DNA of 64,000 bases from Acidobacteriota bacterium (GCA_032127875.1 JAQBHI010000158.1:4626-68625); one strand, 5' to 3'; counted from the first letter of the stretch, positions 3,573-55,928 are shown. Made by a program: numbers and translations. The notes: generated by a model from the letters alone, not told the origin.

Positions 3573-4111
3573 TGCCTAGCCTCCTCGGACTGGTACAGTG
3601 ACTGCTTGATCTCTCGGGTCCTCACCGGAGACAGGGGATCGGTGACCTCCTGCCGGAAGGTGACGTTCGCGGCGTCGATCGCGATGATCTCGCCGTCGAA
3701 CAGGCGCTGCCCAACGTTGACGAAGTAGGATTTTCCATCCGTGCCCAGGAACATCGCGATGTAGCCGGGCTTGTCGCCGGCGCCATAGCCCTGGCCGGTC
3801 TGCTTCACGACGCCCTTGAGCGCGATTTCCTGGATCAGGAACCCGGACATTCCGGGCGGCCTTTGCCCCGGCGTACCCTGAGGACCGACGGGCTTGAGCA
3901 GGCTCACGAACGGGTCGCGGCGTCCCTGGGGGTTGTAGGTGTAGCCACCGGGCGCGGGCTCGAGCTCCTGGTCCAGGATTCGCTTGATGGTGTCCGGTCC
4001 GGCATCGCCAGCGGCCCCGCTGGCTTGGAAGCCGGGCGGCGTTTGAGCCGTCAGGGGCCACGCGATGAGCGCGACCAGCGGCAGGGCGCGAAGCGTCATG
4101 GAGGGCCTCAT
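3569..4111 (-). CDS. pilP: Type IV pilus assembly protein PilP.
   Basis: It sits between pilO and pilQ. The start is set at MRPSMTLRALPLVALIAWPL, where its ATG overlaps the pilO TGA (TGATG). The upstream in-frame extension on the track would overlap pilO and is rejected. Confidence 0.6.
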   Translation of the reverse strand: MRPSMTLRALPLVALIAWPLTAQTPPGFQASGAAGDAGPDTIKRILDQELEPAPGGYTYNPQGRRDPFVSLLKPVGPQGTPGQRPPGMSGFLIQEIALKGVVKQTGQGYGAGDKPGYIAMFLGTDGKSYFVNVGQRLFDGEIIAIDAANVTFRQEVTDPLSPVRTREIKQSLYQSEEARQ

Positions 4112-4776
4112 CACTTCGCTCCCGCAGGCGCCGTGCTGGGCGCGGGCGGGGCCTCGACGTAGACGAAGGTCGTGGCCACGCAGGAGACGTTGATGGTGTT
4201 CGAAGGTCGCGGCGTCGACTGCGCCTTGACGTTCAGGTTGCCCACGTTTACCAGCCGGGACAGGCGTCCGACGCGATCGAAGAAGAGGCCGAGGTTGTGG
4301 TAGGTACCCTCGACGTCGACGTTGATCGGCCATTCCTGGTAGTACTCGTTGCTCGCAGGGGGCTGCTTCGCGGCGCCCGGCTTAGGGGGTGCTTGCCCTT
4401 CCAGCGGGAACTCCTTGCGGACGGTCGCGCCCGGCGTGAACCTGCGGATGATCAGGTTCGACTGGGCGGCCAGGTACTGAACCTTCTTCATCAACTCCGG
4501 GGTTTCCTTGTCCGCCGGCAGGATCCGCTTCAGCGTCTCGAGCTTGGCCTCGCGCAAGGCCACCTCTCGCTGGAATTCCTGCAGCTTGTTGGCGGTCACC
4601 TCGAGGCTGCGAATGTCGCTTTGCAAGGCGCCGAGCTGGTCGGTCCGCTGCTTCTCCTGGATATTCATGTCGTCCCAGAGGAAGTAATAGAAGCCGCCAA
4701 AGATCAAGACCGTCAGGGCTGCCGCCACGCCGAGTTGGCCTAGAATCGGGAGCTTGGTGTAGGGGTTGTCGGCCAT
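4111..4776 (-). CDS. pilO: Type IV pilus assembly protein PilO.
   Basis: N-terminal TM helix then coiled coil (MADNPYTKLPILGQLGVAAALTVLIFGG...). An SD (AAGGGAGAG) precedes the ATG. Position in the operon fits. Confidence 0.8.
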   Translation of the reverse strand: MADNPYTKLPILGQLGVAAALTVLIFGGFYYFLWDDMNIQEKQRTDQLGALQSDIRSLEVTANKLQEFQREVALREAKLETLKRILPADKETPELMKKVQYLAAQSNLIIRRFTPGATVRKEFPLEGQAPPKPGAAKQPPASNEYYQEWPINVDVEGTYHNLGLFFDRVGRLSRLVNVGNLNVKAQSTPRPSNTINVSCVATTFVYVEAPPAPSTAPAGAK

Positions 4777-4789
4777 CGCTCGCTCTCCC

Positions 4790-5383
4790 TTAAGGCTTCT
4801 GGGCGGCTGCGGCCGCTGGATTGGCCTCGGGCGCAGCGTTCTTGAATTCCGCCTGGAGACCGAAGCTGACGACCCCGGCGGGGTTCTGGGTGCTATTCGC
4901 GAGGTCGACCCTTGGGAACCAGCCGCTGCGCTGCAGGTTGCTGATGAGGTCGGCGACGGCGGTGAGGCCGTTGCTCTCGCCTCGGAAATTCAGCACGCTT
5001 CCCTGCTGGGTTAGGTCGGTGAGCCAGACGAAGTCGGGCAGCGCTTTCGAGATTTCGTCGAGCATGTGAACGGGCCCGGACTGCTGGGCCTTCAACTGCT
5101 CGATGAGTTTCACCTTGGCGTCGAGGATCCGCTTCTTCAGCAGGAACTGGTCCACCTGGAGCTTGATCGCCTGCAACTCGGCCTGGCGCTTCTTGCCCGC
5201 CGCGATCTTCTCGTCAAGTTCCTCGATCGAGGCGCTCTTCAGCCACCAGGCGCCGGCACACGCCAAGAGTGCGCCGCCCGCGAAGAGCGCCAGGATCAGA
5301 TAAGCCTGGAACGCGCCCGGCGCTACCCGCGGCCCCTTCTTCACAGTCGGGCGGTCGGCCGCCAGGAGGTTTATGCGGATCAT
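4790..5383 (-). CDS. pilN: Type IV pilus assembly protein PilN.
   Basis: MIRINLL N-terminus, a single TM helix, and a 4-nt overlap with the pilM stop. Confidence 0.8.
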   Translation of the reverse strand: MIRINLLAADRPTVKKGPRVAPGAFQAYLILALFAGGALLACAGAWWLKSASIEELDEKIAAGKKRQAELQAIKLQVDQFLLKKRILDAKVKLIEQLKAQQSGPVHMLDEISKALPDFVWLTDLTQQGSVLNFRGESNGLTAVADLISNLQRSGWFPRVDLANSTQNPAGVVSFGLQAEFKNAAPEANPAAAAAQKP

Positions 5384-6447
5384 CGGTCGCCCATCCTTCT
5401 CACGGCCAGGCCGACGGCGATGGCCGCCGAGGACCCGAACTCACTGATGAAGTCGGGGTCGAAGTCCCGTGGGTTGTAGGTGACGTTGTTGAAGGGGTTC
5501 ATGATCTCCACCCCAGCATCGAAGCGCTCGCCGATGAGATCCTTCAGGCCCTGCACCTTCGAGGTGCCGCCCGAAAGGAAGATCCGGTCGATGCGGTCTT
5601 CGGAGCTCGTGGCCTTGAAGAAGTCGAAGGTCTTCTGGATCTCGAGTGCGATGTTCTCGGAGACGGCCTGCAGGATAGGCTGCAGGTTCTCGACGGCCGC
5701 GCCCTCGACCCGGCCCCCTCGCTTCAGGCTCTCGGCCTGGTCGAAGGAGAGGTTCAGGTCCTTCTGGATCGCGTCGGTGTATTGGTTGCCCCCGACGGCG
5801 ATGTCGCGGTTGAAGATCGAGGTGCCGCCCTTGACGATGTTGATGTTCATGATGGACGCGCCCACGTTGAGCAGCGCAAGCACCCGGCCCGGATCGGAGC
5901 CGTAGTTGACCTCGTAGCAGTTCTGCAAGGCAAACACGTCGACGTCCACGATCTGGGGCGACTTGCCCGCCTGCGTGATCACGGAGGTGTAGTCGCTGAT
6001 CTTGTCCTTCTTGACCGCGACCAGCAGCACGTCCATGTTCCCGCCCGCTCCGCCGCCGTCGATGACCTCGTAGTCGATCGAGACGTCCTGGATGTCGAAC
6101 GGGATGTACTGCTCGGCCTCCCAGTGAATCGATTCCGAGAGTTCCTCGGTGCTCATCTGGGGCAGGCTGATTTTCTTGACGATCACCGCGTTGCCCGAAA
6201 CGCCGGTGCAGACGTCGGGCGTCTTGATCTTCTGCGCCGCGAAGAGCCGCTGGATCCCATCGATGACCGCGCCTGAGTCCATGATGGCGCCGTCCACGAT
6301 GGCTTCCGGCGGAAGCGGCTCGATGCCGATGTTCGTCAACTGGTACTCGGCACCGCCCTTGCCGCCGGCCTTGAGTTCCACGACCTTGATGGCCGAAGAT
6401 CCGATGTCGAGGCCGACCAGACCCTTTTTCTTGCCGAACAAGCCCAC
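5380..6447 (-). CDS. pilM: Type IV pilus assembly ATPase-like protein PilM (actin fold).
   Basis: LFGKKKGLVGLDIGSSAIKVVELK is the canonical PilM N-terminus. The likely start is the GTG at 6447, preceded by GGGAGAGG. The track ORF extends to an ATG at 6543. Confidence 0.85.
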   Translation of the reverse strand: MGLFGKKKGLVGLDIGSSAIKVVELKAGGKGGAEYQLTNIGIEPLPPEAIVDGAIMDSGAVIDGIQRLFAAQKIKTPDVCTGVSGNAVIVKKISLPQMSTEELSESIHWEAEQYIPFDIQDVSIDYEVIDGGGAGGNMDVLLVAVKKDKISDYTSVITQAGKSPQIVDVDVFALQNCYEVNYGSDPGRVLALLNVGASIMNINIVKGGTSIFNRDIAVGGNQYTDAIQKDLNLSFDQAESLKRGGRVEGAAVENLQPILQAVSENIALEIQKTFDFFKATSSEDRIDRIFLSGGTSKVQGLKDLIGERFDAGVEIMNPFNNVTYNPRDFDPDFISEFGSSAAIAVGLAVRRMGDR

Positions 6448-6573
6448 GGGCGCCTCTCCCGGTTTACAAACGGCCCTTGTTCCGACCGCTCCGTCTGCCC
6501 TCTCGCCGCGACCCCCGAATTTCGGAACCGTGGCGAGACCCATACTTACGAAACAGAGTTAAAGTGCTACGTG

Positions 6574-7690: not shown

Positions 7691-8893
7691 CTAGCGGCGA
7701 TATGCGGGAAGCTCCACGCGCCTGGGCCTGTCCTGCCGGAAGCCCAGGGCGTAGTCGGCCTGCATCAGCTTGTGGATCTCCCGGGTGCCCTCGTAGATGA
7801 CGGCGGCCTTGGCGTTGCGAAAGAAACGGCCGGCCGGATACTCGTCGGAGTAGCCGTTGCCGCCGTGGATCTGGACGCAGTCCGACGCCGCGCGCTCGCT
7901 CTTCACGGTGGCAAACCACTTGGCGAGCGAGGTCTCGCGGGTGTTGCGCTTGCCTATGTTCTTGAGCCAGCCGGCGCGCAGCCACAGCAGGCGCGCCGCG
8001 TCGTAGTCGGAGACCATCTCGGCGATCATCTCCTTGACCAGCTGGTGTTCGCCGATCGCGACCCCGAAGGTCTTGCGCTGCTTCGCGTAGGCGACCGAGG
8101 CGTCGAGGCAGGCGCGGATCAAGCCGGTGGCGCCGGCGGCGACCGTGTAGCGGCCGCTCTCCAGGGCGAACATGGCGATGCGGAAACCCTCGCCCTCCTT
8201 GCCTAGCAGGTTCTCGGCTGGAACTTCGAGATCAGCCATGTGGAAGCCCCCCGTGTTGCCGGCGAGGATCCCCCATTTCTCTTTCATCGGGTAGGAACTA
8301 AAGCCCTTGAAGGCGCGCTCCACGATGAAGGCGCTGAGCCCGCTGTGGTCGCGCTTCTTCTTCTTCTCCTGGTCGGTCCAGGCGACCACGAGGAAATTGT
8401 CAGCGACGTCGGCAAGGCTGATCCAGGTCTTTTCCCCGTTCAGCACGTAGCGGTCGCCCTTCTTCAAAGCACTCGTCTGGATCCCGACGGCGTCGGAGCC
8501 GGCGTTTGGCTCGGTCAGGCCGTAGCTCGCGATCTTCTCGCCCCTTGCCTGCGGAGCCAGGTACTTCCGCTTCTGCTCCTCGGAGCCCCAGCACCATAGG
8601 CTCATGCAGTTGAGGCCTACGTGCACCGACATGATCACGCGCAGGTGGGTGTCGACGTACTCGAGCTCCTCGGAGACGAGCCCCAAGCTCAGGTAGTCCA
8701 TGCCCGCCCCGCCGTATTCCTCGGGAATGCAGATCCCGAGCAGCTGCAACTCGGCCATCCCCTTGAGGAATCCGCGCTCGAAGCGATGGGCGCGGTCGAG
8801 CTCGTGGATCTTCGGGGCCACTTCCTTCGCGGCCCAGTCGCGCACCATCTTTTCGACGGCGAGGTGCTCTTCCGACAACTCGAAATCGATCAC
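7691..8893 (-). CDS. Acyl-CoA dehydrogenase.
   Basis: 400 aa. ACAD motifs include [10 protein letters not shown], a YxxxGxK-like region, the FAD-binding middle domain and the C-terminal IYEGT. Confidence 0.9.
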
Positions 8894-8906
8894 TGCAACG
8901 GTCCTT

Positions 8907-9731
8907 TCAACGGTCCTTCCAGTTGGGCTTGCGCTGCTCCATGATGGCCCGGAGCCCCTCCTCAGCGTCCTCGGTGGCCATCAGCTGGTTCAGATACACG
9001 TCCTCGGCGTGGCGCAGGGCCTCCGGGAAGGGCAGATCGACGCCACCCGCGATGCCCTTGCGCGTGTACTGCATCACCGGGGCGCTCGACTCGGCGAAGC
9101 GCTGGATCAGCGCGGCCGCCTCGGCATCGAGCTTGTCGTCGGGAACCGCCCGCGAGATGAGGCCGATGCGCTCGGCGTCGGTGGCGCTCAACACCTGCCC
9201 ACCGAGCAAGAGGTCATAGGTCTTGCGGCGGCCGACGAGGTGCGGCAAGAGCGCCGCGGCCACCGTATTGAAGACCCCGGCACGGATTTCCGGATGCCCG
9301 AACTTGGCATTCTGTGCGCCCGCCAGGACGATGTCGCAAGCCGCAGCCAGGATGCTGCCCGCGCCGGTGGCCGGGCCGGCGACCACGGCCAGGGTTGGCT
9401 TGTCCACCTTGGCCAGACTCTCGATGATGCGACGCAATCCCTCGAGCATCAGATAGGCCCGATCGCCCAGGTGATCGCCGATCTCGAAACCGGCGGAGAA
9501 GTACTTCCCGGCCGCCGTCAGCACCACCAGCTTCACGTCGCGTTCGTACTCGAGGGATTCCAGGACCGAGTTCAGGTCCTCCATCAGCTCCATCGACAAG
9601 ACGTTCGCGGGCGGCCGGTTCAGGGTGATCCGGGCCACGCCCCCCACCGTCGCGAACTGGACGAACTGATAGGTGCGCGCGCTGGTGGGGTAGCTGTCGG
9701 CGTCGTGCGGGTCGTCTTCGAAGTCGGCCAT
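8907..9731 (-). CDS. Enoyl-CoA hydratase/isomerase (crotonase family).
   Basis: Start at [10 protein letters not shown]. Crotonase blocks are present ([35 protein letters not shown]). The upstream in-frame extension on the track is rejected. Confidence 0.85.
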
Positions 9732-9741
9732 CGTCAGTTCC

Positions 9742-10926
9742 TCATGCGATCCGTTCGAAAGCGGCCGCCAGGCCCATGCCGCCACTAATGCACAGCGTGG
9801 CGAGGCCGCGCCTGGCGCCCCGGCGAGCCATCTCGTGGAGCAGCGTGGTCGAGATCCGGGCGCCGGTGGCCCCGATCGGATGGCCGATCGCGATCGCGCC
9901 ACCGTTGACGTTTAGCCTCTCCGGCGCGAAACCCAGCTCGCGGTCGCAGGCGATCACCTGGGCCGCGAAGGCCTCGTTGGCCTCGACAAGGTCGAAGTCC
10001 TCGAGGCACAGCGAGAGGCGGGAGAGCAGCTTGCGGGTGGCCGGAACGACGCCGATGCCCATGACGTGGGGATCCACACCGGCGGCGGCCACGCCCAGAA
10101 GCCGCGCCATGGGCCTCACGCCCAGCGCCGTCGCCTTCTCCTTCGCGATCACGACCATCGCGGCAGCGCCATCGGTAATGCCCGAGGAGTTGCCGGCGGT
10201 CACCGTGCCGGTCTCTTCCTTGAACACCGGCGGCAGCTGCGCGAGGCTTGCCAGGGTGCTGCCGGCGCGAAAGTGCTCGTCCTGGCGGAACTCTGTGTCG
10301 CCCTTCTTGCCCGGGACCTTGACGGCGAAGGTCTCCGCGTCGAAGCGGCCGGCCTTCCAGGCGGATGCGGCGCGCTCCTGGCTGCGCATCGCGAACTCGT
10401 CCTGCTCCTGTCGGCCAATGCCGTGGATCTGGGCGAGTCGCTCGGCGGTCTCGCCCATCAGCATCTCGGCCAGCGGGCACTGGAAGCCGTCTTGATACAT
10501 CGCGTCCACGGCCGGCTGGTGTCCCATGCGGTAGCCCCAGCGGGCGCCTGTGAGCAGGTAGGGCACCCGGCTCATCGACTCGGTGCCACCGGCCACCACG
10601 ACGTCGGCATCGCCGTCGCGGACCGCTCGGAAGGCAAGCTCGATCGCCTTGAGGCCGCTGCCGCAGGCCATGTTGATCGTGAAGGCGGTGACCTCCTGGG
10701 GAATCCCGGCTCGGTAGGAGACCTGGCGCGCCACGTTGGGTCCGCCACCTGCTTGACGCGCGCAGCCGAACACCGTTTCGTCCACCTGGTCCGGGCGCAC
10801 TCCGGCGCGTCGCAGTGTTTCGCCGACGGCGGCGGCGCCCAACTCGGCCGCGGTGAGGCCGGACAAGGACCCGCCGAACTTGCCGATGGGCGTGCGAACA
10901 GCCCCGGCGACGACAACCTCCCTCAT
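9742..10926 (-). CDS. Acetyl-CoA C-acetyltransferase (thiolase).
   Basis: [15 protein letters not shown], an [10 protein letters not shown]-type active-site Cys region and a C-terminal GGMG. Confidence 0.9.
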
Positions 10927-10977
10927 GCAGGATGCCTCAGCGTACCTATGACTTAGAGGCCGAATGATAACACATCG

Positions 10978-35051: not shown

Positions 35052-37877
35052 ATGCCGGAAGCCGCCACGGCCGCGACGGAGGAGCGGGTTCTCAAGATCG
35101 TCCGAGAGCTGGCGCTCGAGTTGGGCGGCAGCCGGGCAGAGCGCGCTGTCAGCCCCGAGGCCTCGCTGGAACGCGATGTCGGGCTCGGCAGCCTCGAGCG
35201 GGTCGAACTGCTGGTGCGGCTGGAGGCCGCCTTCGGGTGCGCGCTGGGCGAACGCCTTCTGGGCCTGGACACAGCAACGGCGATGGCGCGAGCGGTCGAA
35301 GAGGCCGGCCCCGTCGAACCCGCGCGCTTGGCCCGGCCGGCGTCGAGACTGGCAGACGCAGCCCGCATCGAGACGGCGGCCACGATCCACGAGACGCTCT
35401 GGCGCCGCGCGCTGGCGGAGCCCGACCGGCCTCAGGCGTTCCTCCGCGAGGACGATGGCCGCGAGCAGACCATTACCTACGGGCGGCTGCTGGGCGACGC
35501 GCGGGCGGTGGCCGGTGGGCTTCGGGAACGCGGCGTCAGGCGAGGGGACGCCGTGGCGCTGATGTTGCCAACCGGCTTCGATTTCCTGCGCAGCTTCCAG
35601 GGCATCTTGATCGCCGGCGCGATCCCCGTGCCAATCTACCCCCCAGCGCGGCTCGACCGCCTCGAGGAGTACGCTCGGCGCCAATCCGCGATCCTCGCCG
35701 ACGCCGGCGTCAAGCTCCTCGTCACGATCGCGCGCGCCAAGCCGATCGCGGCCATGCTACGCGCCGGCGTGCCGGGCCTCGCGCTCGTGACGACGGCCGA
35801 CGAGCTGGTGCAGACGGGCGCCAGTTGGCAAGCACCCGAGGGCGCCACGAGCGACCCGGCCTTCATCCAATACACCTCCGGCAGCACGGGTCAGCCGAAG
35901 GGCGTGCTGCTCACGCACGCGAACCTGCTCGCGAATATCCGGGCGATCCGGGCGGGCCTCGAAGCGCGCCCGACCGACGTGGGCGTGAGCTGGCTACCGC
36001 TCTACCACGACATGGGCCTGATCGGCTCCTGGCTGTTTTGCATGGCCGAGGGTCTGCCGATCGCGCTGCTCTCGCCGCTCAGCTTCCTTTCGAAACCTGA
36101 GCGTTGGCTTTGGGCGATCCACGAGCGGCGCGGCTCGCTCTCCGCCGCGCCCAACTTCGCGTACGAACTGTGCGTGAAGCGCATCCCGGAGCAGGCCCTC
36201 GAAGGCCTCGATCTGTCTTCCTGGCGCTGCGCCCTGAATGGCGCCGAGCCCGTCAACCCCGAGACGCTGGAGCGCTTCGCGAAGCGCTTCGCGCCTTATG
36301 GTCTGCGCCGCGAGGCGCTGATGCCTGTGTATGGCCTGGCCGAAAACTCGGTCGGTTTGTGCTTTCCGCCCGTCGGTCGTGGGCCGCGTGTCGATCGGGT
36401 CGCGCGCTCCGCGTTTGCCGGAGCGGGAAGCGCCGAGCCAGCGGGCGCCAGCGATAGCGCTGCGCAGTGCTTCGTCTCGGTAGGACGGGCGCTGCCCGAA
36501 CACGAGGTGCGCATCGTAGACGCGGCTGGCAACGAGCTTCCCGAACGCCGGCTCGGCCGGCTGGTCTTCCGCGGCCCCTCCATGACCCCAGGCTACTTCC
36601 GCAAGCCCGAGGCCACGGCAGCGATGAGCGTGGCCGGCGGCTTTCTGGACAGTGGCGATCTCGCCTACCAGGCAGACGGTGAGGTCTACATCGCGGGGCG
36701 CGAGAAGGACCTGATCATCAAAGCCGGCCGCAACCTGGTTCCGCAGGAGATCGAAGAAGTGGCCGCTTCCGTGCCAGGCATCCGCAAGGGTTGTGTGGTG
36801 GCCTTCGGCGCCCACAACGAGGCGCTCGCGACCGAGTCGCTGGTCGTGGTGGCGGAAACGCGGGAGACCGACGAGGCGGCGCGCGACACGCTGATTGCCT
36901 CGGTCACCGAACGAGTCGCCGACGCCGTGGGCGCGCCCCCCGATAGCGTGGTGCTGGTGCCACCGGGGGCCGTGCCCAAGACATCGTCGGGCAAGCTTCG
37001 ACGGCAGGAGACGAAGCAGCGCTATCTCTCAGGGGCCTTGGGCCCGGGTCGGCGAACGCCGCTGCCCGCGCGCGCGGCCCTGCTCGTCCGCGCAACCCTC
37101 GCCGAGGCCGAGCGACCGCTGCGCGCGCTTCGGCGCGGAGTCTACGGGGCCTGGCTGGTCGTGGCGCTAGGGCTGCTGACGCTGCTTACATGGCCGATCG
37201 CGGCGCTGCTGCCGGGCCGCGGCAGCGCTCTCAGTATCGAGCGCTGGTTCTGCCGAATCGCGCTGCGCCTGGCCGGCTGCCGACTCTCGAGCGAGGGCCT
37301 CGCGAATTTCCCTACAAGCGAGCCGTTCCTGATCGCCTCGAATCACGCCTCGTACGTGGATGTCGCCGCGCTGCTCGCCCTCGTGCCGCGCAACTTCGTA
37401 TTCCTCGCGAAAAAGGAAGTCGCGAACTGGCCGTTCGTCGGGCTCTTCATCAGGCGCGCCCGGCACCTGAGCGTCGATCGCTTCGACGCGCAACAGGGCG
37501 TCGCGGACACGGGCCGCGTCGCGGCCGCCGTGGGCGAGGGCGAATCGGTCCTGGTGTTCCCCGAAGGCACCTTCACGGCAGCCGCCGGACTTCGGCCCTT
37601 CCGCCTCGGGTTGTTCAAGGTCGCGCTGGAGACCGGCGTGCCCATCGTGCCCGTGGCGCTCACGGGAACGCGGCACGCTCTGCGTGACGGCCAGACGCTG
37701 CCGCGCGCCAGCCGGATTCACCTGTGGGTCGGTGCGCCGATCCACGCCGAAGGCGACGGCTTCAAAGCGATCGTCGCGCTGCGCGACCGGGTGGCCGAGG
37801 CGATCGCGAGCCGCTGTGGCGAGCCCCGTCTCGGCCTGGTGGCGGCGGGTCCCGACCGCAGCGCAGCAGACGCCTGA
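35052..37877 (+). CDS. Tri-domain enzyme: acyl-carrier (PP-binding) domain, then a fatty-acyl-AMP ligase / acyl-ACP synthetase domain, then a lysophospholipid acyltransferase (PlsC-like) domain.
   Basis: The N-terminus has DVGLGSLERVELLVRLEAAFG, the PP-binding Ser. AMP-ligase motifs follow (YTSGSTGQPKGV, YGLAEN, GDLAY...KDLIIKAG). Then come about 2 TM helices, the PlsC HxxxxD block (ASNHASYVD) and FPEGTF. 941 aa. Confidence 0.8.
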   Translation: MPEAATAATEERVLKIVRELALELGGSRAERAVSPEASLERDVGLGSLERVELLVRLEAAFGCALGERLLGLDTATAMARAVEEAGPVEPARLARPASRLADAARIETAATIHETLWRRALAEPDRPQAFLREDDGREQTITYGRLLGDARAVAGGLRERGVRRGDAVALMLPTGFDFLRSFQGILIAGAIPVPIYPPARLDRLEEYARRQSAILADAGVKLLVTIARAKPIAAMLRAGVPGLALVTTADELVQTGASWQAPEGATSDPAFIQYTSGSTGQPKGVLLTHANLLANIRAIRAGLEARPTDVGVSWLPLYHDMGLIGSWLFCMAEGLPIALLSPLSFLSKPERWLWAIHERRGSLSAAPNFAYELCVKRIPEQALEGLDLSSWRCALNGAEPVNPETLERFAKRFAPYGLRREALMPVYGLAENSVGLCFPPVGRGPRVDRVARSAFAGAGSAEPAGASDSAAQCFVSVGRALPEHEVRIVDAAGNELPERRLGRLVFRGPSMTPGYFRKPEATAAMSVAGGFLDSGDLAYQADGEVYIAGREKDLIIKAGRNLVPQEIEEVAASVPGIRKGCVVAFGAHNEALATESLVVVAETRETDEAARDTLIASVTERVADAVGAPPDSVVLVPPGAVPKTSSGKLRRQETKQRYLSGALGPGRRTPLPARAALLVRATLAEAERPLRALRRGVYGAWLVVALGLLTLLTWPIAALLPGRGSALSIERWFCRIALRLAGCRLSSEGLANFPTSEPFLIASNHASYVDVAALLALVPRNFVFLAKKEVANWPFVGLFIRRARHLSVDRFDAQQGVADTGRVAAAVGEGESVLVFPEGTFTAAAGLRPFRLGLFKVALETGVPIVPVALTGTRHALRDGQTLPRASRIHLWVGAPIHAEGDGFKAIVALRDRVAEAIASRCGEPRLGLVAAGPDRSAADA

Positions 37878-38833
37878 TGCTGCATCTCGACGACGTACGG
37901 CGTGCCCGGGAGCGGATCGCCCCCTACCTTCCAACCACGCCGCTGCGAGCCTCGTTCGCGGTCCCGGCGCCGCGGACCTTCCTGAAGCTCGAATGCTGGC
38001 AGCCGACCGGCTCGTTCAAGGTGCGCGGCGCCACGAACCACCTCTTGGCACTCGACGCGCAGCAGCAGGCGCGGGGCATCATCGCCGCCTCGGCCGGCAA
38101 CCACGCCCTGGGCGTCGCCTTCGCGGCGGCGGCGCTGGGCGGGCGGGTGCAGACCACACTGGTTGTTCCACGCAGCGCGCCGCGGGCCAAGCTCGAGAAG
38201 CTTCGCAGCTTCCCGGTGACGGTGATCGAGCACGGGGCCAACTACGACGAGGCGTATCCGGAGTCGATGCGCATCGCGCAGCGCAGCGGAGCCACCTACG
38301 TGCATGCCTACGAGCATCCCCTGACGGCGGCCGGGCAGGGCACCGTTGCGCTCGAAATCCTGGAGGCCCTGCCGGAGCTGGGCGCGGTCCTCGTGCCGGT
38401 CGGGGGTGGCGGACTGATCGCCGCCATCGCGACGGTCGTGAAGACGCTCAAGCCCGATGTCCGGATCGTGGCCGTGCAACCCGACGTCTCGCCCTCGCTT
38501 CGCGAATCATTGCGCCTGGGCCACGCGCTCCACGAGTACCCGGCGGGTGAGACGCTGGCCGACGGCATCGCGGGCGGCGTCGGCGACATCGCCTACGAGC
38601 ATCGGCACCTGATCGACGACGTGGTCGAGGTCTCCGAGGAGGCGACGCAAGAGGCGATCGTGGCGCTGCTTACGAACGACCAAGTGGTGGCCGAAGCCTC
38701 GGGGGCGGTCGGGATCGCGGCGCTGCGCTCTGGACGCTGGAAGGCGCTCGACGCCCGGCCCGTGGTCGCGCTCATCACCGGCGCCAACATCGACGCGCGC
38801 GTCCTCGCCCGGCTACTCTCCGCGCGGGCGTGA
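37877..38833 (+). CDS. Threonine / serine dehydratase (PLP fold-type II).
   Basis: The PLP-Lys block is GSFKVRGATN. A Gly-rich loop is present (PVGGGGLIAAI). Its ATG overlaps the upstream stop (TGATG). Confidence 0.85.
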   Translation: MLHLDDVRRARERIAPYLPTTPLRASFAVPAPRTFLKLECWQPTGSFKVRGATNHLLALDAQQQARGIIAASAGNHALGVAFAAAALGGRVQTTLVVPRSAPRAKLEKLRSFPVTVIEHGANYDEAYPESMRIAQRSGATYVHAYEHPLTAAGQGTVALEILEALPELGAVLVPVGGGGLIAAIATVVKTLKPDVRIVAVQPDVSPSLRESLRLGHALHEYPAGETLADGIAGGVGDIAYEHRHLIDDVVEVSEEATQEAIVALLTNDQVVAEASGAVGIAALRSGRWKALDARPVVALITGANIDARVLARLLSARA

Positions 38834-39726
38834 GGGCTGAGCGGCCCCAGGACGCCTGGTTTGCCCAGGCCGGCTCGGGCCTGCTGTTCGTCTGCGGCGC
38901 CGGCCTTGGCGCGCTCCTGCACGGTGTTCCAGGCGCAGCGGGCGGGGCCGCGGCAGCAGCGGCGATCGGCGCGCTCTTGGCCCATCACCTGCACAGCCGG
39001 ACGCGGCAGCGCAGGAAGCTCCTGGCGGCGCCGCTTTCCGCGCGGCATCGCGACTTCCTGCTGGAGCGCTACGACTACTTCGAGCGCCTGCCGGCGCGAC
39101 TTCGCGCACGCTTCGAGGACGATCTGCGCCTGTTCCTGGGCGAGAAGCGCATCACGGGCGTCGGCATCGACGTGAACGACGAACTGCGACTGCTGGTGGC
39201 GGCCTCGGCCGTGACGCTGAGCCTGGGCTGGCCGGAAGCCGAGTGGGACCAGCTCACCGAGGTGCTGCTGTATCCGGAGAATTTCGACCGGGACTACGCG
39301 CACGGCGGACAGGATCTGGCCGGGGAGGCCCACGCATGGGGCACGGTGATCCTGTCGGTCCCGACGCTGCTGGAGAGCTTCGAGTACGACGACGATGGTT
39401 ACCACGTCGGCCTGCACGAGTTCGCTCACCTGCTCGACGTGGAGCAGGCCGAGTTCGACGGCATGCCCAGCGGGCTTGGCCCCCAGGATCGGGGCGCCTG
39501 GGCGAAGCTCGTGCCGCGGGAAATGGGACGCATCCGCGAGGGACGCTCCGAACTCGACGAATATGGCGCCTCGGACCCCGTCGAGTTCTTCCCGGTGGCG
39601 GTCGAGGCCTTCTTCGAGCGACCGCGCGTGATCCGCGAGCACCACCCCGAGATTTACGAGATCCTGGCCCGCTACTTCGTTCAGGATCCGGCCTCCTGGG
39701 ACGACGCGCGTCGGCTTTCGGGGTAG
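38830..39726 (+). CDS. MtfA-like zinc metallopeptidase (M90 family).
   Basis: HEFAHLLD is an HExxH motif. The overall layout is MtfA/DUF462-like. The GTG start overlaps the upstream stop. Confidence 0.7.
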   Translation: MRAERPQDAWFAQAGSGLLFVCGAGLGALLHGVPGAAGGAAAAAAIGALLAHHLHSRTRQRRKLLAAPLSARHRDFLLERYDYFERLPARLRARFEDDLRLFLGEKRITGVGIDVNDELRLLVAASAVTLSLGWPEAEWDQLTEVLLYPENFDRDYAHGGQDLAGEAHAWGTVILSVPTLLESFEYDDDGYHVGLHEFAHLLDVEQAEFDGMPSGLGPQDRGAWAKLVPREMGRIREGRSELDEYGASDPVEFFPVAVEAFFERPRVIREHHPEIYEILARYFVQDPASWDDARRLSG

Positions 39727-41136: not shown

Positions 41137-42261
41137 GTGCGCCTCCTCCGACCTCTGCTTCAGCTGCCGGCCCTGGTTCTAGCCCTTTTTCTCCCCGGCT
41201 GCGGCGGGGCTTCGCCGCCAGTGACCCCGCCGCCGACGACCCCACCCGAGCTCTTCGATGTGCCCGTGATGGTCTTTTACGACGTGAACGGGAACAGCCT
41301 GGCAGACGGCGACGAGCATGGCGTCGTGCCGGCGGCCACCGTCCAGATCCTGAACGAGAGCGCCGAGACTGCGGCCGCCACCGGTCTCGCGACGCTGCGC
41401 GCTCCCGCCGGCAACCAAACGGCCACCATCAAGAGCCTGCCGGCCTACTACGAGGCGGGCCCATCCGTCGCCGTGAGCACGCCGATCGCGGATGGACAGC
41501 CCGTGAGGCTGCCCGCGACGCTTCCCATCGGAGCGAATCGCCCAGCCGTCTATCTGGCCTTCGGCGACAGCATCACCGATGGGTGCGGTTCGTCCAACCG
41601 CACCGGCTACCGCATGAAGCTGCAAAACAGACTGGGCAGGTGGTTTGACGAAGGCACAGTCGAGAACCAGGGCCTCGACGGCACGCGCAGCAGCGAGGGC
41701 GCCGCGCGCATCAAGAGGAGCCTCTCGAACATCAAGCCTGCCTACGCGCTGATCCTCTACGGCACGAACGATTGGAACGATTCGCGCTGCCGGAGCGCCT
41801 TCCCCTGCTACACCATCGACAGCCTCCGCAGCATGGTCCGCGCGGCCAAGCAGCGGCGAAGCCTGCCGATACTCTCGACGATCATCCCGGTCAACAATGG
41901 CTTCGACGCGCGCGTCCCCGCCTCCAGGAACGACTGGGTCAGGAGCATGAACGCCCTGCTCGTGGAGATGGCCGCGGAAGAAGGCGCCGTCATCGCGGAC
42001 AGCTACACCGCGTTCATGGCCGTGCCCGATTTCCACGCCTTGTTCATCGATCACGTACATCCGAACGACGACGGCTACAGCATCTTGGCGGGCGAGTTCT
42101 TCAGGGCGATCACGCAGCCGATCGCCGCGCCGTCGGCGTCGGGCCCGAGCGTGCCGCCGCTGCTCCCGCCGCCGGGCAGCTTCCCCGAGTTCGTGCCTCC
42201 GGACCCGGCAGACATGCCGCTAGTGCCGCGCGCGGAGCCTCAATCGGAGCGTAGTCCCTGA
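41137..42261 (+). CDS. SGNH/GDSL hydrolase-family lipoprotein.
   Basis: Lipobox LFLPGC. The GDSL block is LAFGDSITDG. Also LYGTNDW and the catalytic DHVHPN. Pro-rich C-terminal tail. Confidence 0.8.
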   Translation: MRLLRPLLQLPALVLALFLPGCGGASPPVTPPPTTPPELFDVPVMVFYDVNGNSLADGDEHGVVPAATVQILNESAETAAATGLATLRAPAGNQTATIKSLPAYYEAGPSVAVSTPIADGQPVRLPATLPIGANRPAVYLAFGDSITDGCGSSNRTGYRMKLQNRLGRWFDEGTVENQGLDGTRSSEGAARIKRSLSNIKPAYALILYGTNDWNDSRCRSAFPCYTIDSLRSMVRAAKQRRSLPILSTIIPVNNGFDARVPASRNDWVRSMNALLVEMAAEEGAVIADSYTAFMAVPDFHALFIDHVHPNDDGYSILAGEFFRAITQPIAAPSASGPSVPPLLPPPGSFPEFVPPDPADMPLVPRAEPQSERSP

Positions 42262-52981: not shown

Positions 52982-55090
52982 CTAGCGGCTCGTGGTTTGG
53001 CGCAGCTGCTCGCGTGCGGGAGCGAAGCGCGGGTCGAGCTGCAGGCTCTTCTCGAAGAAGGGCCGCGCGTCGCTGCGACGTCCCTGCCGCAGTATCGCCA
53101 GGCCGAGGTTGTAGGCGTACTGGGCGTTCTCCTTGTCCCGCTCCAGAGCCTGGCGGAACGCCTTCTCCGCCTCGGCCATCTCCTCGTGGGCGCCCAGGAC
53201 CATGCCCAGGGAATTCCAGAAGGAAGCCTGTGCTGCGTCCAGCGCCACGGCCTCGCGCATCAGCTCGATGGAACGGGGCAGATTCCCGGCATCGCGATGC
53301 AGCTCGCCCAGGCGCACACGGGCGAGGGCGTTGGTCGGGGCGACGGGCAGCGCGGCCTCGTACGCGCCGATCGCTTCGTCCCGCTTGCCCATCTTCAGCA
53401 GGACCGCGGCCTCGCGGATCCGGAGGCTTCCGTCCTTCGGCGCCGCCTGCTGTCCCTTCCTGAGCGTGGCGAGAGCGCCGGTCAGGTCGCCCCGAGCCAG
53501 GCGGCACTCGGCCAGCGCTTCGTAGGCCTTGCCATAGGCCGGCTGATAGCGGATCGCGCCCTCGAAATGGGTTTCCGCCTCGCGCAGCCGTTTCAGCCCG
53601 ACCAGCGCCCGGCCGAGGTAGTAGTGGACCTCGAAGCTCTCGATCTTCTTCGCGAGCAGCGCGCGAAAACGCGCAACGCTGGTGGCGTACTGCTTCTCCC
53701 GGAGCGCGATCAGGCCCCCGCGGATCAGCCGGTTCGCGACCTTGAACTCCTCGATCTGGTCCTTCGGATCCGCCCCGGGCGACGAGCCCTGCCCCGGTGC
53801 GCCGGCTCCGAGGTAGCCCAGGGCGCCAAGCTTTTCGAGCAGGTCCTCAGGCACGCTCTCGGCGCCGGCTGCCGCCGGGCCCCGGGCGCGCTCGGCGTCG
53901 AGGATGCGCCCAAGCGCCGCGCGCAGCGCCTCGGCTCGCTGCGGCTGGGCTGCCAGCAGATTGTGCATCTCGCCCGGGTCGTGCTTCAGGTCGTAGAGCT
54001 CGGGGCGGGGCGCCTGAATGTACTTCCAACGTCCCTCGCGCAGGGCCCTGAGATCGCTCCAGCCGAAGTGCAGCAGCGGCAGGAGCGATTCAGCGTAGGT
54101 CGGGGTTTCGGCTGGCGCCGGGAGGCCGCGCAGGGCGTCGGCGAGGCTGCGGCCCGAGAAGCGCGCCTGGGCGGGGCGCACCACGCCGACGAGGTCCAGG
54201 ACCGTCGGGGCGACGTCGATGCTGCGAACCGTCACGCCAAGACGGCCCCCGGCGACGACGCCCGGGCCACGCACGAGCAGCGGCACGCGAAGCGTCGACT
54301 GGTAGACGAAGAAGCCGTGGGCGGATTCCGCGTGCTCCCCGAGGCCTTCACCATGGTCGGCGGTCACGACGAGCAGCGTCTCCTGCCGCATCCCCAGGCG
54401 CTCGAGGGTCGCGTCCAGGCGCCCAATCAGCTCGTCGGCCCAGGCCACCTCCCCGTCGTAGGGACGCCCCGCGTAGCGCGACGCGTACGGCTCCGGCGGC
54501 TCGTAGGGATCATGGGGATCGTACAGGTGGAGCCACAGGAAGACCCGCCCGGAATGATTCGCCTCGAGCCATGCCGTGGCGTCCCCCAGCGTTTCGTCGC
54601 CGCGCTTCTGGATGGTGTTCAGAAAGCGGGCGTCGTCGGTGTCGCCCTGGAAGCGATCCCCGTAGCTGTCGAAACCACGGTTCAGGCCCGACTGCTGCGA
54701 GAGCACGATCGAGGACACGAACGCCCCGGTTTCGAAGCTGGCGGCCTTCATCGCCTCGGCCAGCGTCGGGACGTTCGGCAGCAGCGTCGGGGAGACGTTG
54801 TCACGGATGCCGTGCTCCGAAGGCAGCAGGCCCGTGAGCAAAGACGTGTGCGATGGCCGCGTCAGGGCGACCTGCACCATGGCCTCGGACGCCATCGCTC
54901 CTTCGCGAGAGATCCGGTCGAGGTTCGGCGTCGCGACGTCGCGGCTCCCGTAGCAGCCGAGGCGGTCGGCTCGCAGCGTGTCGATGGTGACCAGCACGAC
55001 ATGGCGTGCGCGCGGCGGCGCTGCCTCGGGTGTCGGGCGCGGCACGCAGGCGGCGAGCGCCGCGATGCCCAGCGCGACGAGCCTACGCAT
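52982..55090 (-). CDS. Sulfatase-family hydrolase with a C-terminal TPR repeat region (lipoprotein).
   Basis: The start MRRLVALGIAALAACV has a lipobox. The sulfatase block is VVLVTIDTLRADRLGCYGS, and LTGLLPSEHG, TADHGEGLGEH and several TPR repeats follow. The track ORF is trimmed. Confidence 0.8.
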   Translation of the reverse strand: MRRLVALGIAALAACVPRPTPEAAPPRARHVVLVTIDTLRADRLGCYGSRDVATPNLDRISREGAMASEAMVQVALTRPSHTSLLTGLLPSEHGIRDNVSPTLLPNVPTLAEAMKAASFETGAFVSSIVLSQQSGLNRGFDSYGDRFQGDTDDARFLNTIQKRGDETLGDATAWLEANHSGRVFLWLHLYDPHDPYEPPEPYASRYAGRPYDGEVAWADELIGRLDATLERLGMRQETLLVVTADHGEGLGEHAESAHGFFVYQSTLRVPLLVRGPGVVAGGRLGVTVRSIDVAPTVLDLVGVVRPAQARFSGRSLADALRGLPAPAETPTYAESLLPLLHFGWSDLRALREGRWKYIQAPRPELYDLKHDPGEMHNLLAAQPQRAEALRAALGRILDAERARGPAAAGAESVPEDLLEKLGALGYLGAGAPGQGSSPGADPKDQIEEFKVANRLIRGGLIALREKQYATSVARFRALLAKKIESFEVHYYLGRALVGLKRLREAETHFEGAIRYQPAYGKAYEALAECRLARGDLTGALATLRKGQQAAPKDGSLRIREAAVLLKMGKRDEAIGAYEAALPVAPTNALARVRLGELHRDAGNLPRSIELMREAVALDAAQASFWNSLGMVLGAHEEMAEAEKAFRQALERDKENAQYAYNLGLAILRQGRRSDARPFFEKSLQLDPRFAPAREQLRQTTSR

Positions 55091-55928
55091 CTCCCGTGGC
55101 CACGGGCAGGCTGGGGTCGGAGCTCCACTCGCTCCAGCTCCCGCCGTAGAGGCGACCTCGCAGGCCGGCGAGATCCAGGGCCAGCAGGTCGTGGCAGGCG
55201 GTGACACCCGAGCCGCAGTAGACGATGGGCTCCTCGCGATCGGCGCCGAGGCTGGCATAGCGGGTGCGAAGCTCCAGAGGCGAACGGAAGACCGGCGAAG
55301 GATCGGCCGTGAGGTTGTCGGAGTACGGCGCGCTGCGCGCGCCGGGAATGTGACCCGCCCGCGGGTCGATCGGCTCGAGCTCCCCACGGTAGCGTTCGGC
55401 CGCACGAGCATCGAGAACCACGGCCCCGGGATCCAGCGCCAGCATCTCGGCCTTGCTGAGCACCGCCCCGGGCCGGGCGCGGGGCGTGAAGGTCGCAGGC
55501 TGGATTGCCGGCGCCCGCGTATCGACGGGACGACCCTCGGCCTGCCACTTCACGATCCCGCCGTCGAGCACGGCCACCGCTTCATGGCCGTAGGCGCGCA
55601 GCAGGAACCACAGCCGCGCGGCCACCGCGCCGGCCTGGTCGTCGTAAGCGACCACCTGCGTCCTATCCCCCACCCCGGCGCCTGTCATGACACGGGCCAC
55701 CTGCGCGGCATTCGGCCAGGGATGTCGACCCAGCGGACCGCCGCGCCGGCCGCCGGGGGCCGCCAGGCCTTCTTCCACGTCGAGGAACAGCGCCCCGGGG
55801 ATGTGGCCGGCCTGCCAGGCATCCCGCCCGCGCCGGGCGGGATCGAGATACCAGCGCACGTCCACGATGCGCAACTCGCCGTCGGCCAGATGCTCGGCGA
55901 GCCAGTCGGTATCGACGAGCGCCCCCAC
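55083..55928 (-). CDS. Thiosulfate / 3-mercaptopyruvate sulfurtransferase (tandem rhodanese).
   Basis: Two rhodanese domains with the active-site loop CGSGVTAC. 281 aa. Confidence 0.85.
   Translation of the reverse strand: MGALVDTDWLAEHLADGELRIVDVRWYLDPARRGRDAWQAGHIPGALFLDVEEGLAAPGGRRGGPLGRHPWPNAAQVARVMTGAGVGDRTQVVAYDDQAGAVAARLWFLLRAYGHEAVAVLDGGIVKWQAEGRPVDTRAPAIQPATFTPRARPGAVLSKAEMLALDPGAVVLDARAAERYRGELEPIDPRAGHIPGARSAPYSDNLTADPSPVFRSPLELRTRYASLGADREEPIVYCGSGVTACHDLLALDLAGLRGRLYGGSWSEWSSDPSLPVATGDA

Follow-up and report, generated by a model that had tools for sequence, protein, structure and literature searches.

An acyl carrier, fatty acyl-AMP ligase and acyltransferase in one polypeptide: a widespread bacterial fusion family and its possible role in the CoA-independent acylation of membrane lipids

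Bacteria are known to combine the activation of fatty acids with their transfer in a few ways. In Aas of Escherichia coli, a two-step chemistry of acyl-ACP synthetase and lysophospholipid acyltransferase runs through a thioester on the acyl carrier protein (ACP), and the enzyme, which is peripheral and has no transmembrane helix, depends on the separate holo-ACP of the cell (PMC11416262). Fatty acyl-AMP ligases (FAALs) reject coenzyme A (CoA) and need a holo-carrier protein as the acceptor (PMC8460268); the characterised ones hand their acyl chain to a polyketide synthase (PKS) or a nonribosomal peptide synthetase (NRPS), and any fused carrier comes after the ligase. In ElbD of Myxococcus xanthus (Q1DC43), an enzyme acting on fatty acids, adenylation, carrier and AGPAT-like domains are found together with a fatty-acyl reductase. 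One FAAL survey includes "a fusion with lysophospholipid acyltransferases", with its "unique domain organization", in a list of unusual bacterial architectures (PMC8460268, Patil et al. 2021), and another names the fusion only as an "LPAT_AGPAT_like" context (PMC12820801); both surveys mention it without functional work. Here we describe such a fusion gene in a stretch of 64,000 nucleotides, hereafter the window, from an Acidobacteriota bacterium (GCA_032127875.1 JAQBHI010000158.1:4626-68625). Judged by its sequence, the encoded protein would, on balance, probably be a self-contained, CoA-independent enzyme of fatty-acid salvage or lipid re-acylation, acting on the cytoplasmic side of the inner membrane.

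The gene is an ATG-initiated open reading frame (ORF) of 941 amino acids, identified from the ORF list and the translation of the window (Table 1). Its GC content at third codon positions (GC3) is 0.85, as is usual for coding sequence at the GC content of the window (64-71%, and 68% overall), and a word-indexed search found a 100% identical protein in public data. In a Pfam scan, the domains appear in the order carrier, ligase and acyltransferase: PP-binding (PF00550) matches residues 29-82 with 25.2 bits against a gathering cutoff of 20.8 (E 2e-5), AMP-binding matches residues 118-516 (E 4.6e-68), followed by a weaker match of its C-terminal subdomain to residues 556-663, and Acyltransferase (PF01553) matches residues 747-870 with 102.5 bits against a cutoff of 23 (E 2e-29). 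An AlphaFold2 model of the full protein has a mean predicted local distance difference test score (pLDDT) of 76.6 and a predicted template-modelling score (pTM) of 0.69. The initial annotation had read the gene as a single polypeptide of three domains, consisting of a phosphopantetheine carrier, an adenylating acyl-AMP ligase and a PlsC-type acyltransferase with HxxxxD and FPEGTF motifs, in the reverse of the domain order of E. coli Aas and with the carrier added. All of this is borne out: the ORF and its three domains are seen in the Pfam scan, and every motif quoted is present; the carrier model exceeds its gathering score and the attachment serine is invariant; PF01553 matches a segment containing both acyltransferase blocks; and protein families, structures and pocket residues place the ligase in the FAAL class. 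No curated NCBIfam model reaches its cutoff on the protein. Scans for a promoter and a terminator of the gene gave nothing exceeding the background, and a tblastn search of the window for a paralogue returned only the self-match.

Table 1. Positions of the fusion gene, its parts and other features. Coordinates refer to the window, except where a homologous locus (L followed by a number) is named.
Feature	Coordinates	Strand	Basis
Complete coding sequence, ACP-FAAL-acyltransferase fusion, 941 amino acids plus stop	35052..37877	+	ORF list, translation, GC3, homologues
N-terminal acyl carrier (PP-binding) domain, residues ~9-85; Ser47 codon 35190-35192	35076..35306	+	Pfam, generic ACP models, conservation, AlphaFold2
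Linker between carrier and ligase, residues 86-112	35307..35387	+	poor conservation, low pLDDT
Predicted FAAL domain, residues ~113-664 (N-subdomain to ~555; C-subdomain 556-664)	35388..37043	+	Pfam, NCBIfam, PDB matches, plug residues
FAAL-specific insertion, residues ~446-475	36387..36476	+	alignment with FadD, Aas and FAAL structures
Sole strongly hydrophobic segment, likely membrane anchor, residues 696-722	37137..37217	+	Kyte-Doolittle, homologues, AlphaFold2
Basic amphipathic helix, residues 723-740, just before the acyltransferase fold	37218..37271	+	AlphaFold2, sequence SALSIERWFCRIALRLAGCRL
PlsC/AGPAT-type acyltransferase, residues 746-919; NHASYVD 37341-37361, FPEGT 37557-37571	37287..37808	+	Pfam, NCBIfam, 5kym, conservation
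PALP gene (threonine/serine-dehydratase-like enzyme); TGATG overlap with fusion-gene stop 37875-37879	37877-38833
Peptidase_M90 (MtfA-like) gene; overlap with PALP gene end 38830-38833	38830-39726
ORF of 71 amino acids between HU and the fusion gene	34739-34954	-
Similar small proteins	L001 7702-7944; L003 7734-7949		likeness judged by eye
GDSL-family lipase/acylhydrolase	41137-42261	+
GDSL gene in Vicinamibacteria loci	L001 17471-18499; L002 15743-16783; L003 14035-15093
PAS-GAF-PAS-GGDEF-EAL signalling protein, 859 amino acids	27907-30486	+
Type IV pilus genes, then acyl-CoA dehydrogenase and thiolase	1191-6558; 7691-10977	-
CarboxypepD_reg/TonB-dependent-receptor-like protein, ~938-939 amino acids	50102-52918	+
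Sulfatase fused to long TPR array	52982-55549	-
Atg22/UMF1-type MFS gene near the fusion gene	L023; L028 (8826-10088); L035; L038; L050; L052; L056; L059; L071; L075; L080; L082 (4700-5992)
Extra stand-alone ANL/FAAL-like gene (552-661 amino acids) near the fusion gene	L020 4178-5971; L048 3904-5766; L057 599-2257; L084 238-2223

The class of the ligase determines where its acyl group can go, and here several comparisons agree. The top NCBIfam match is PRK09192, "fatty acyl-AMP ligase", with 457.6 bits against a cutoff of 600, and the next models are MbtM, FadD32, FadD21 and FadD28, all under their curated cutoffs. The nearest PDB entries by sequence are FAALs, namely 7r7e and 7r7g (olefin synthase), 3pbk (E. 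coli) and 3kxw (Legionella), and in a Foldseek search of the PDB with the AlphaFold2 model, the best 26 entries were all FAALs, the acyl-CoA synthetase FadD13 appearing first at rank 42; target-normalised TM-scores were 0.86-0.88 to 7r7e and 3pbk and 0.82-0.88 over the FAALs compared. The YGLxE and S-x-G motifs are separated by 44 residues, where E. coli FadD has 17 and Aas about as few, and the stretch with its ~27 extra residues aligns without gaps to 3pbk, 7r7g and 3kxw; we therefore identify it as the FAAL-specific insertion, the feature that the initial annotation had named for telling FAALs from fatty acyl-CoA ligases and that is absent from both FadD and Aas. In the E. coli enzyme (EcFAAL), residues W224, M231 and F279 form a bulky plug of the canonical CoA pocket (PMC8460268, Patil et al.), and through the alignment with 3pbk, these correspond to W314, M321 and F369 of the fusion protein. 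Conservation of such residues was assessed across 39 family members reaching down to 35% identity, and among them neither W314 nor F369 varies, while the conservation of M321 is at least 90%. On sequence and modelled structure, the ligase is thus predicted to be a FAAL, neither an acyl-CoA synthetase nor an Aas-type acyl-ACP synthetase, and one that reaches no curated subfamily cutoff. With EcFAAL (3pbk), the Synechococcus enzyme (7r7e) and mycobacterial FadD32 it shares 34-36% identity over the ligase, the insertion, the tryptophan, methionine and phenylalanine of the plug, and the pairing with a dedicated carrier domain; unlike in the characterised FAALs, the carrier stands before the ligase, and a membrane lipid acyltransferase lies downstream.

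The phosphopantetheine-attachment motif of the carrier, DVGLGSLERVEL, covers residues 42-53, with Ser47 as the attachment residue. Generic ACP models match the domain (E 8e-6), the family consensus around Ser47 is the canonical DLGLDSL, and the serine itself is unchanged in 26 close homologues as well as in the 39 distant ones. In the AlphaFold2 model, a helix of residues 47-61 begins at Ser47, as the carrier-protein fold predicts. The linker towards the ligase has a mean identity of 0.38, against 0.67-0.76 for the adjoining domains, and pLDDT falls below 50 over residues 87-96; it is probably a flexible tether. Among the neighbouring genes scanned, a set smaller than the full list of ORFs in the window, there was no phosphopantetheinyl transferase. 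A few homologues seem to have no carrier domain; in two of them, P0244 (825 amino acids) and P0240 (860 amino acids), the alignment starts only at query residue ~115-134, and they are either carrier-less proteins or truncated gene calls and, if real, would need a carrier protein in trans.

In the acyltransferase, the HX4D block NHASYVD occupies residues 764-770 and FPEGTF residues 836-841, and N764, H765, D770 and E838 are unchanged in the 39 family members. PlsC of Thermotoga maritima (5kym) matches the whole of the domain with an E-value of 4.9e-19. Scored against curated models, the segment reaches 100.1 bits with the generic AGPAT model TIGR00530 (cutoff 102.95), 80.3 and 72.8 bits with two models of OlsA, an O-acyltransferase of lyso-ornithine lipid (cutoffs 300), 66.9 bits with PRK08633 of the LplT-Aas fusion type (cutoff 1221) and 27.9 bits with PRK08043, which represents E. 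coli Aas (cutoff 886). The protein thus resembles PlsC and AGPAT enzymes (TIGR00530, 5kym) in its HX4D and FPEGT blocks, its fold region and the two helices ahead of the catalytic domain, and differs from them in its fusion to a module making its own acyl donor and in a TIGR00530 score just short of the cutoff.

The two helices are not the pair of transmembrane helices that the initial annotation had predicted. The Kyte-Doolittle mean over 19 residues peaks at 2.34 within residues 696-722, the C-terminal part of an AlphaFold2 helix spanning residues 671-719, and there is no second such segment between the catalytic domains; the helix that follows, residues 723-740 (SALSIERWFCRIALRLAGCRL), is arginine-rich and amphipathic and has too little hydrophobicity for a transmembrane helix. 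The homologues agree: in 35 of the 39 diverse ones there is exactly one hydrophobic segment, and in the other four, overlapping pieces of the same segment. The N-terminal segment of PlsC in 5kym is a two-helix motif that anchors the protein in one leaflet of the membrane. As the alignment with the fusion protein opens at PlsC residue 65, the helices of residues 671-740 sit where the ~64 N-terminal residues of PlsC sit and, by this analogy, would share their membrane-anchoring role. For the ligase to have ATP at its disposal and for the loaded carrier to meet the transferase, the two catalytic halves would both have to lie on the cytoplasmic side, and a monotopic or hairpin anchor seems more plausible than a single membrane-spanning helix.

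The system closest in kind is Aas, where an ANL fatty-acid-activating domain and a PlsC-superfamily acyltransferase are likewise joined in one membrane-associated polypeptide. The differences are considerable, however. Aas has its acyltransferase at residues ~1-140 and its ligase at ~215-719, the reverse of the order seen here; it shares only 28% identity with the fusion protein over the ligase and 26% over the acyltransferase; its ligase is without the FAAL insertion; and where Aas uses cellular ACP and has no membrane-embedded helix, the fusion protein carries its carrier in cis and a hydrophobic anchor. Scored as a whole against the LplT-Aas fusion models, the protein reaches 162.9 bits with PRK08633 (cutoff 1221) and 159.9 bits with PRK06814 (cutoff 1349). 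With these two models and PRK08043 far below their cutoffs, the domain order reversed and the FAAL insertion present, we reject orthology to Aas: judged by its sequence, the protein is not an Aas orthologue and would work like Aas without belonging to its family.

We infer from these features a fatty-acid substrate, loading and hand-over in cis, a lyso-glycerolipid acceptor and a cytoplasmic topology, and the proposed cycle would run as follows. The FAAL domain would adenylate a free fatty acid with ATP. As FAALs cannot use CoA, the acyl group would then pass to the N-terminal carrier of the same polypeptide, bound through the 4'-phosphopantetheine at Ser47, a probably flexible linker of ~27 residues tethering this carrier to the ligase; given the need of FAALs for holo-ACP and the invariant serine, the fused carrier is the obvious acceptor. 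The loaded carrier would swing over to the PlsC-type acyltransferase, which the hydrophobic and the amphipathic helix would keep at the membrane, and the HX4D site would join the acyl chain to a lyso-glycerolipid at its free hydroxyl group, the acceptor being 1-acyl-glycerol-3-phosphate or else a lysophospholipid. The likeness to PlsC favours the former, making the enzyme a fatty-acid-salvaging PlsC; the analogy to Aas and the transporter and diacylglycerol kinase genes found near some homologues (see below) favour lysophospholipid repair. The idea that the enzyme would activate a fatty acid, load it on itself and transfer it to a lysolipid, put forward when the gene was first read, remains the best explanation of a protein whose catalytic and carrier residues are conserved and whose ligase is a predicted FAAL; the further idea of ornithine-lipid synthesis fares worse, as discussed below.

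The fusion is far from rare. A word-indexed search found at least 120 full-length homologues of the same architecture, with 62-89% identity and labelled as Vicinamibacteria or Acidobacteriota, under generic source names such as "AMP-binding protein", "1-acyl-sn-glycerol-3-phosphate acyltransferase" and "fatty-acyl-CoA synthase"; given these labels, an origin of the window in the Vicinamibacteria is most likely. In an exhaustive search of representatives clustered at 50% identity, about 100 of the best 150 are ~900-1020 amino acids long and align collinearly in a single piece covering residues ~10 to ~927, with identities of 36-52%. A scan of GTDB with one genome per species gave at least 600 stretches, 598 of 600 being confirmed as relatives, and the best 80 loci were taken for the work on genomic context. 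These are mostly full-length at 40-65% identity and come from more than 10 phyla, with Acidobacteriota, Nitrospirota, Gemmatimonadota, Methylomirabilota, Myxococcota, Desulfobacterota, Planctomycetota, Actinomycetota, Campylobacterota, Bdellovibrionota, Candidatus Entotheonella and the Alpha-, Beta- and Gammaproteobacteria all represented. Cultured carriers include Pseudomonas sp. UM16, Mesorhizobium delmotii STM 462, Methylocystis sp. JAN1, Thiocystis violacea DSM 208, Photobacterium minamisatsumaniensis, Halospina denitrificans DSM 15505, Malikia granosa P1 and Wenzhouxiangella. Such a collinear architecture across more than 10 phyla means that the three domains have long been kept together, and on these alignments, the fusion is old, widespread and selected as a unit. 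The rarity implied by the first reading of the gene does not hold, then, and the architecture had already been noted in the FAAL surveys (PMC8460268, PMC12820801). It had also been considered that the protein might turn out to be a well-known, annotated variant of Aas; it is indeed common and generically annotated, yet it is no orthologue of Aas, and the searchable literature contains no experimental characterisation of it. Rather than an oddity, it belongs to a large family of the Aas-like bifunctional kind, whose members carry generic annotations and seem to be uncharacterised.

The genomic context was surveyed by BLAST clustering of 2956 flanking ORFs from the 80 loci, in which clusters 1-4 and 6-7 are antisense shadow ORFs within the fusion gene itself, and by a Pfam tally of 144 first-shell and 117 second-shell neighbours (261 genes from 76 loci). 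Among the 261 genes, there was no PKS or NRPS, reductase, HAD, epimerase or OlsB-like gene. An operon conserved across phyla can be rejected, as the only recurring neighbour is an Atg22/UMF1-type transporter of the major facilitator superfamily (MFS; PF11700). It is the immediate neighbour in nine loci and lies within 2.2 kb in 12 of the 80, loosely as lplT adjoins aas; the loci bearing it span the Alpha-, Beta- and Gammaproteobacteria and Desulfobacterota, and the gap is often 0-70 nt, in either orientation. We tried the MFS protein as an orthologue of LplT and rejected this for want of specific similarity. A diacylglycerol kinase is the immediate neighbour in two loci. Both kinds of neighbours fit membrane-lipid turnover, the link to the MFS gene being suggestive only. 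Four loci have an extra stand-alone ANL/FAAL-like gene, which in L020 and L048 is directly upstream of the fusion gene on the same strand; its product may load the same carrier with a second specificity for fatty acids.

Several points weigh against the proposed cycle. The carrier-less-looking homologues P0244 and P0240 suggest that loading in cis may not be obligatory. The score of the acyltransferase segment is slightly under the AGPAT cutoff and far under those of Aas and OlsA, and the acceptor is unreadable from the sequence. A true single-pass transmembrane helix at residues 696-722 would split the ligase and the acyltransferase across the membrane, so the cycle depends on the same-side topology that we infer. 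The AlphaFold2 model is of moderate confidence. The MFS neighbour has only generic MFS motifs in common with LplT and no curated family assignment, and a profile of this Atg22-type neighbour matches nothing in the window, LplT itself not having been searched for there. Finally, our search of the literature for a functional study found only passing mentions of the fusion, with no member experimentally characterised.

Of the alternatives, the one that survives best, though we still consider it unlikely, takes the two halves of the protein to be uncoupled: the ACP-FAAL part would load an acyl chain for another enzyme, or the acyltransferase would draw on the ordinary pool of acyl-ACP or acyl-CoA, and the fusion would only position the ligase at the membrane. 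The homologues that seem to lack the carrier, the stand-alone ANL/FAAL genes at L020, L048, L057 and L084 and an acyltransferase domain nearest to ordinary PlsC would all suit such an arrangement. Without coupling, however, it is hard to explain why the architecture has stayed collinear and why the carrier serine and the acyltransferase residues are invariant down to 35% identity, and the flanking genes include no conserved partner enzyme.

We see only a slim chance that the protein is a reductase-less, ElbD-like enzyme making ether lipids or other specialised glycerolipids, with other proteins providing the missing steps in trans. Adenylation, carrier and AGPAT-like domains occur together in ElbD as well (PMC9426513, PMC9131029); a review on plasmalogens of myxobacteria points out that the fatty-acyl reductase domain is mostly missing from ElbD-like homologues of other phyla (PMC9131029); and some Acidobacteriota make ether lipids, ElbD homologues having been reported in the phylum. 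Yet ElbD has its domains in the order reductase, adenylation, carrier and acyltransferase (PMC9426513), with the reductase at the N terminus, the carrier between the adenylation and acyltransferase domains and the gene in an elbA-E operon, and none of this is found in the fusion, where the carrier comes first and the Pfam scan detected no NAD-binding or reductase domain. Neither the window nor the 76 other loci have elbB (HAD) or elbE (epimerase) neighbours, and the best 150 representatives contain no protein with the length and layout of ElbD, even though FAAL-bearing PKS and NRPS proteins appear there. ElbD, moreover, behaves as a soluble protein (PMC9131029), whereas the fusion family keeps its hydrophobic anchor. 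We thus reject membership in the ElbD family on architecture and context, drawing the distinction from the published descriptions of ElbD.

A similarly low probability attaches to an acceptor other than a glycerolipid, such as lyso-ornithine or another N-acyl amino-acid lipid, a glycolipid or a protein; on this view, the enzyme would build an unusual lipid and not recycle phospholipids. Enzymes of the PlsC family accept varied acceptors, and the OlsA models are the second and third NCBIfam matches to the acyltransferase segment. Their scores are nevertheless far short of 300 and lower than that of the AGPAT model, and no OlsB-type N-acyltransferase or recurrent partner in lipid biosynthesis was seen among the 261 flanking genes, which together also speak against the ornithine-lipid role suggested in the first reading; the very broad phyletic spread is more in keeping with a universal acceptor than with a lipid of particular lineages. 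That the protein loads starter units in the making of a lipopeptide or polyketide, the role of most characterised FAALs, is highly improbable: FAALs are classically tied to PKS and NRPS systems (PMC8460268, PMC11837247) and the nearest solved structures come from PKS systems, where the FAAL is a loading domain (7r7e), but there is no PKS or NRPS in the neighbourhood within the window or among the flanking genes of the 76 loci, the C-terminal domain is a lipid acyltransferase and not a condensation or ketosynthase domain, and the Vicinamibacteria context is syntenic and of a housekeeping kind.

Within the window, the gene is found in the order DivIC, HU, a small divergent ORF, the fusion gene, the PALP gene for a pyridoxal-phosphate (PLP) enzyme resembling threonine/serine dehydratases, Peptidase_M90 and an RluD-like pseudouridine synthase, and the block of DivIC, HU, fusion gene, Peptidase_M90 and RluD is syntenic in three Vicinamibacteria relatives (~65-70% identity). 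The stop and start codons of the fusion, PALP and Peptidase_M90 genes overlap in succession, suggesting a translationally coupled operon. The PLP enzyme was considered as a functional partner and rejected as an obligate one: L001, though syntenic, lacks its gene and has Peptidase_M90 overlapping the fusion-gene stop directly, and across phyla it accounts for only two of the 144 immediate neighbours. The 71-residue ORF between HU and the fusion gene may be a conserved small protein; its likeness to the proteins of L001 and L003 was judged by eye, and no Pfam match is recorded for those counterparts. A few genes downstream of the fusion gene lies a GDSL-family lipase/acylhydrolase with an N-terminal extension of ~135 residues, kept in all Vicinamibacteria loci examined and weakly matching a TesA/lysophospholipase L1 model (E 9.5e-4); it could be a source of free fatty acids or lysolipids for putative re-use by the fusion enzyme.

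Elsewhere in the window, a PAS-GAF-PAS-GGDEF-EAL signalling protein is encoded upstream of the fusion gene and is syntenic in L001 and L003. Type IV pilus genes (a PilQ-like secretin with AMIN, and PilM) are followed by genes for an acyl-CoA dehydrogenase and a thiolase, and given such beta-oxidation-type genes, the organism probably also has CoA-dependent fatty-acid degradation. One ORF of nearly the same length as the fusion gene was tried as its paralogue and rejected, the product being an unrelated outer-membrane protein of the TonB-dependent-receptor kind; beside it is a gene for a sulfatase fused to a long TPR array.

Overall, the comparisons allow a broader if tentative suggestion, one that we think could well prove wrong: the family may represent a distinct and widespread route for free fatty acids into membrane lipids, a closed, ATP-driven circuit of FAAL, carrier in cis and PlsC that would bypass acyl-CoA, the soluble acyl-ACP pool and acyl-phosphate, would in some lineages work with the Atg22/UMF1-type MFS protein as an unrecognised transporter of lysolipids or fatty acids, and would stand beside FadD, Aas/AasS and FakAB. 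The logic of such an enzyme is unsurprising to a specialist; the breadth of the family and its solution of combining a FAAL with a carrier in cis nevertheless make it a good target for study, and the family is a clear example of FAALs outside PKS and NRPS systems. Genome annotation would be affected, the present names being generic. BLAST surveys of ether-lipid genes identify ElbD with e<1e-30 and at least 30% identity (PMC11868695), and the fusion family may be counted among the "ElbD homologues" in surveys of this kind. If our reading is right, the enzyme would affect how membrane-lipid signatures are interpreted in soil and palaeoclimate work. It would also bear on the question of how exogenous fatty acids allow bacteria to bypass inhibitors of fatty-acid synthesis. 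With cultured carriers at hand, the hypothesis is directly testable, and, if true, many environmental bacteria would re-use fatty acids and repair lysolipids by means of one protein, independently of CoA and the general ACP.

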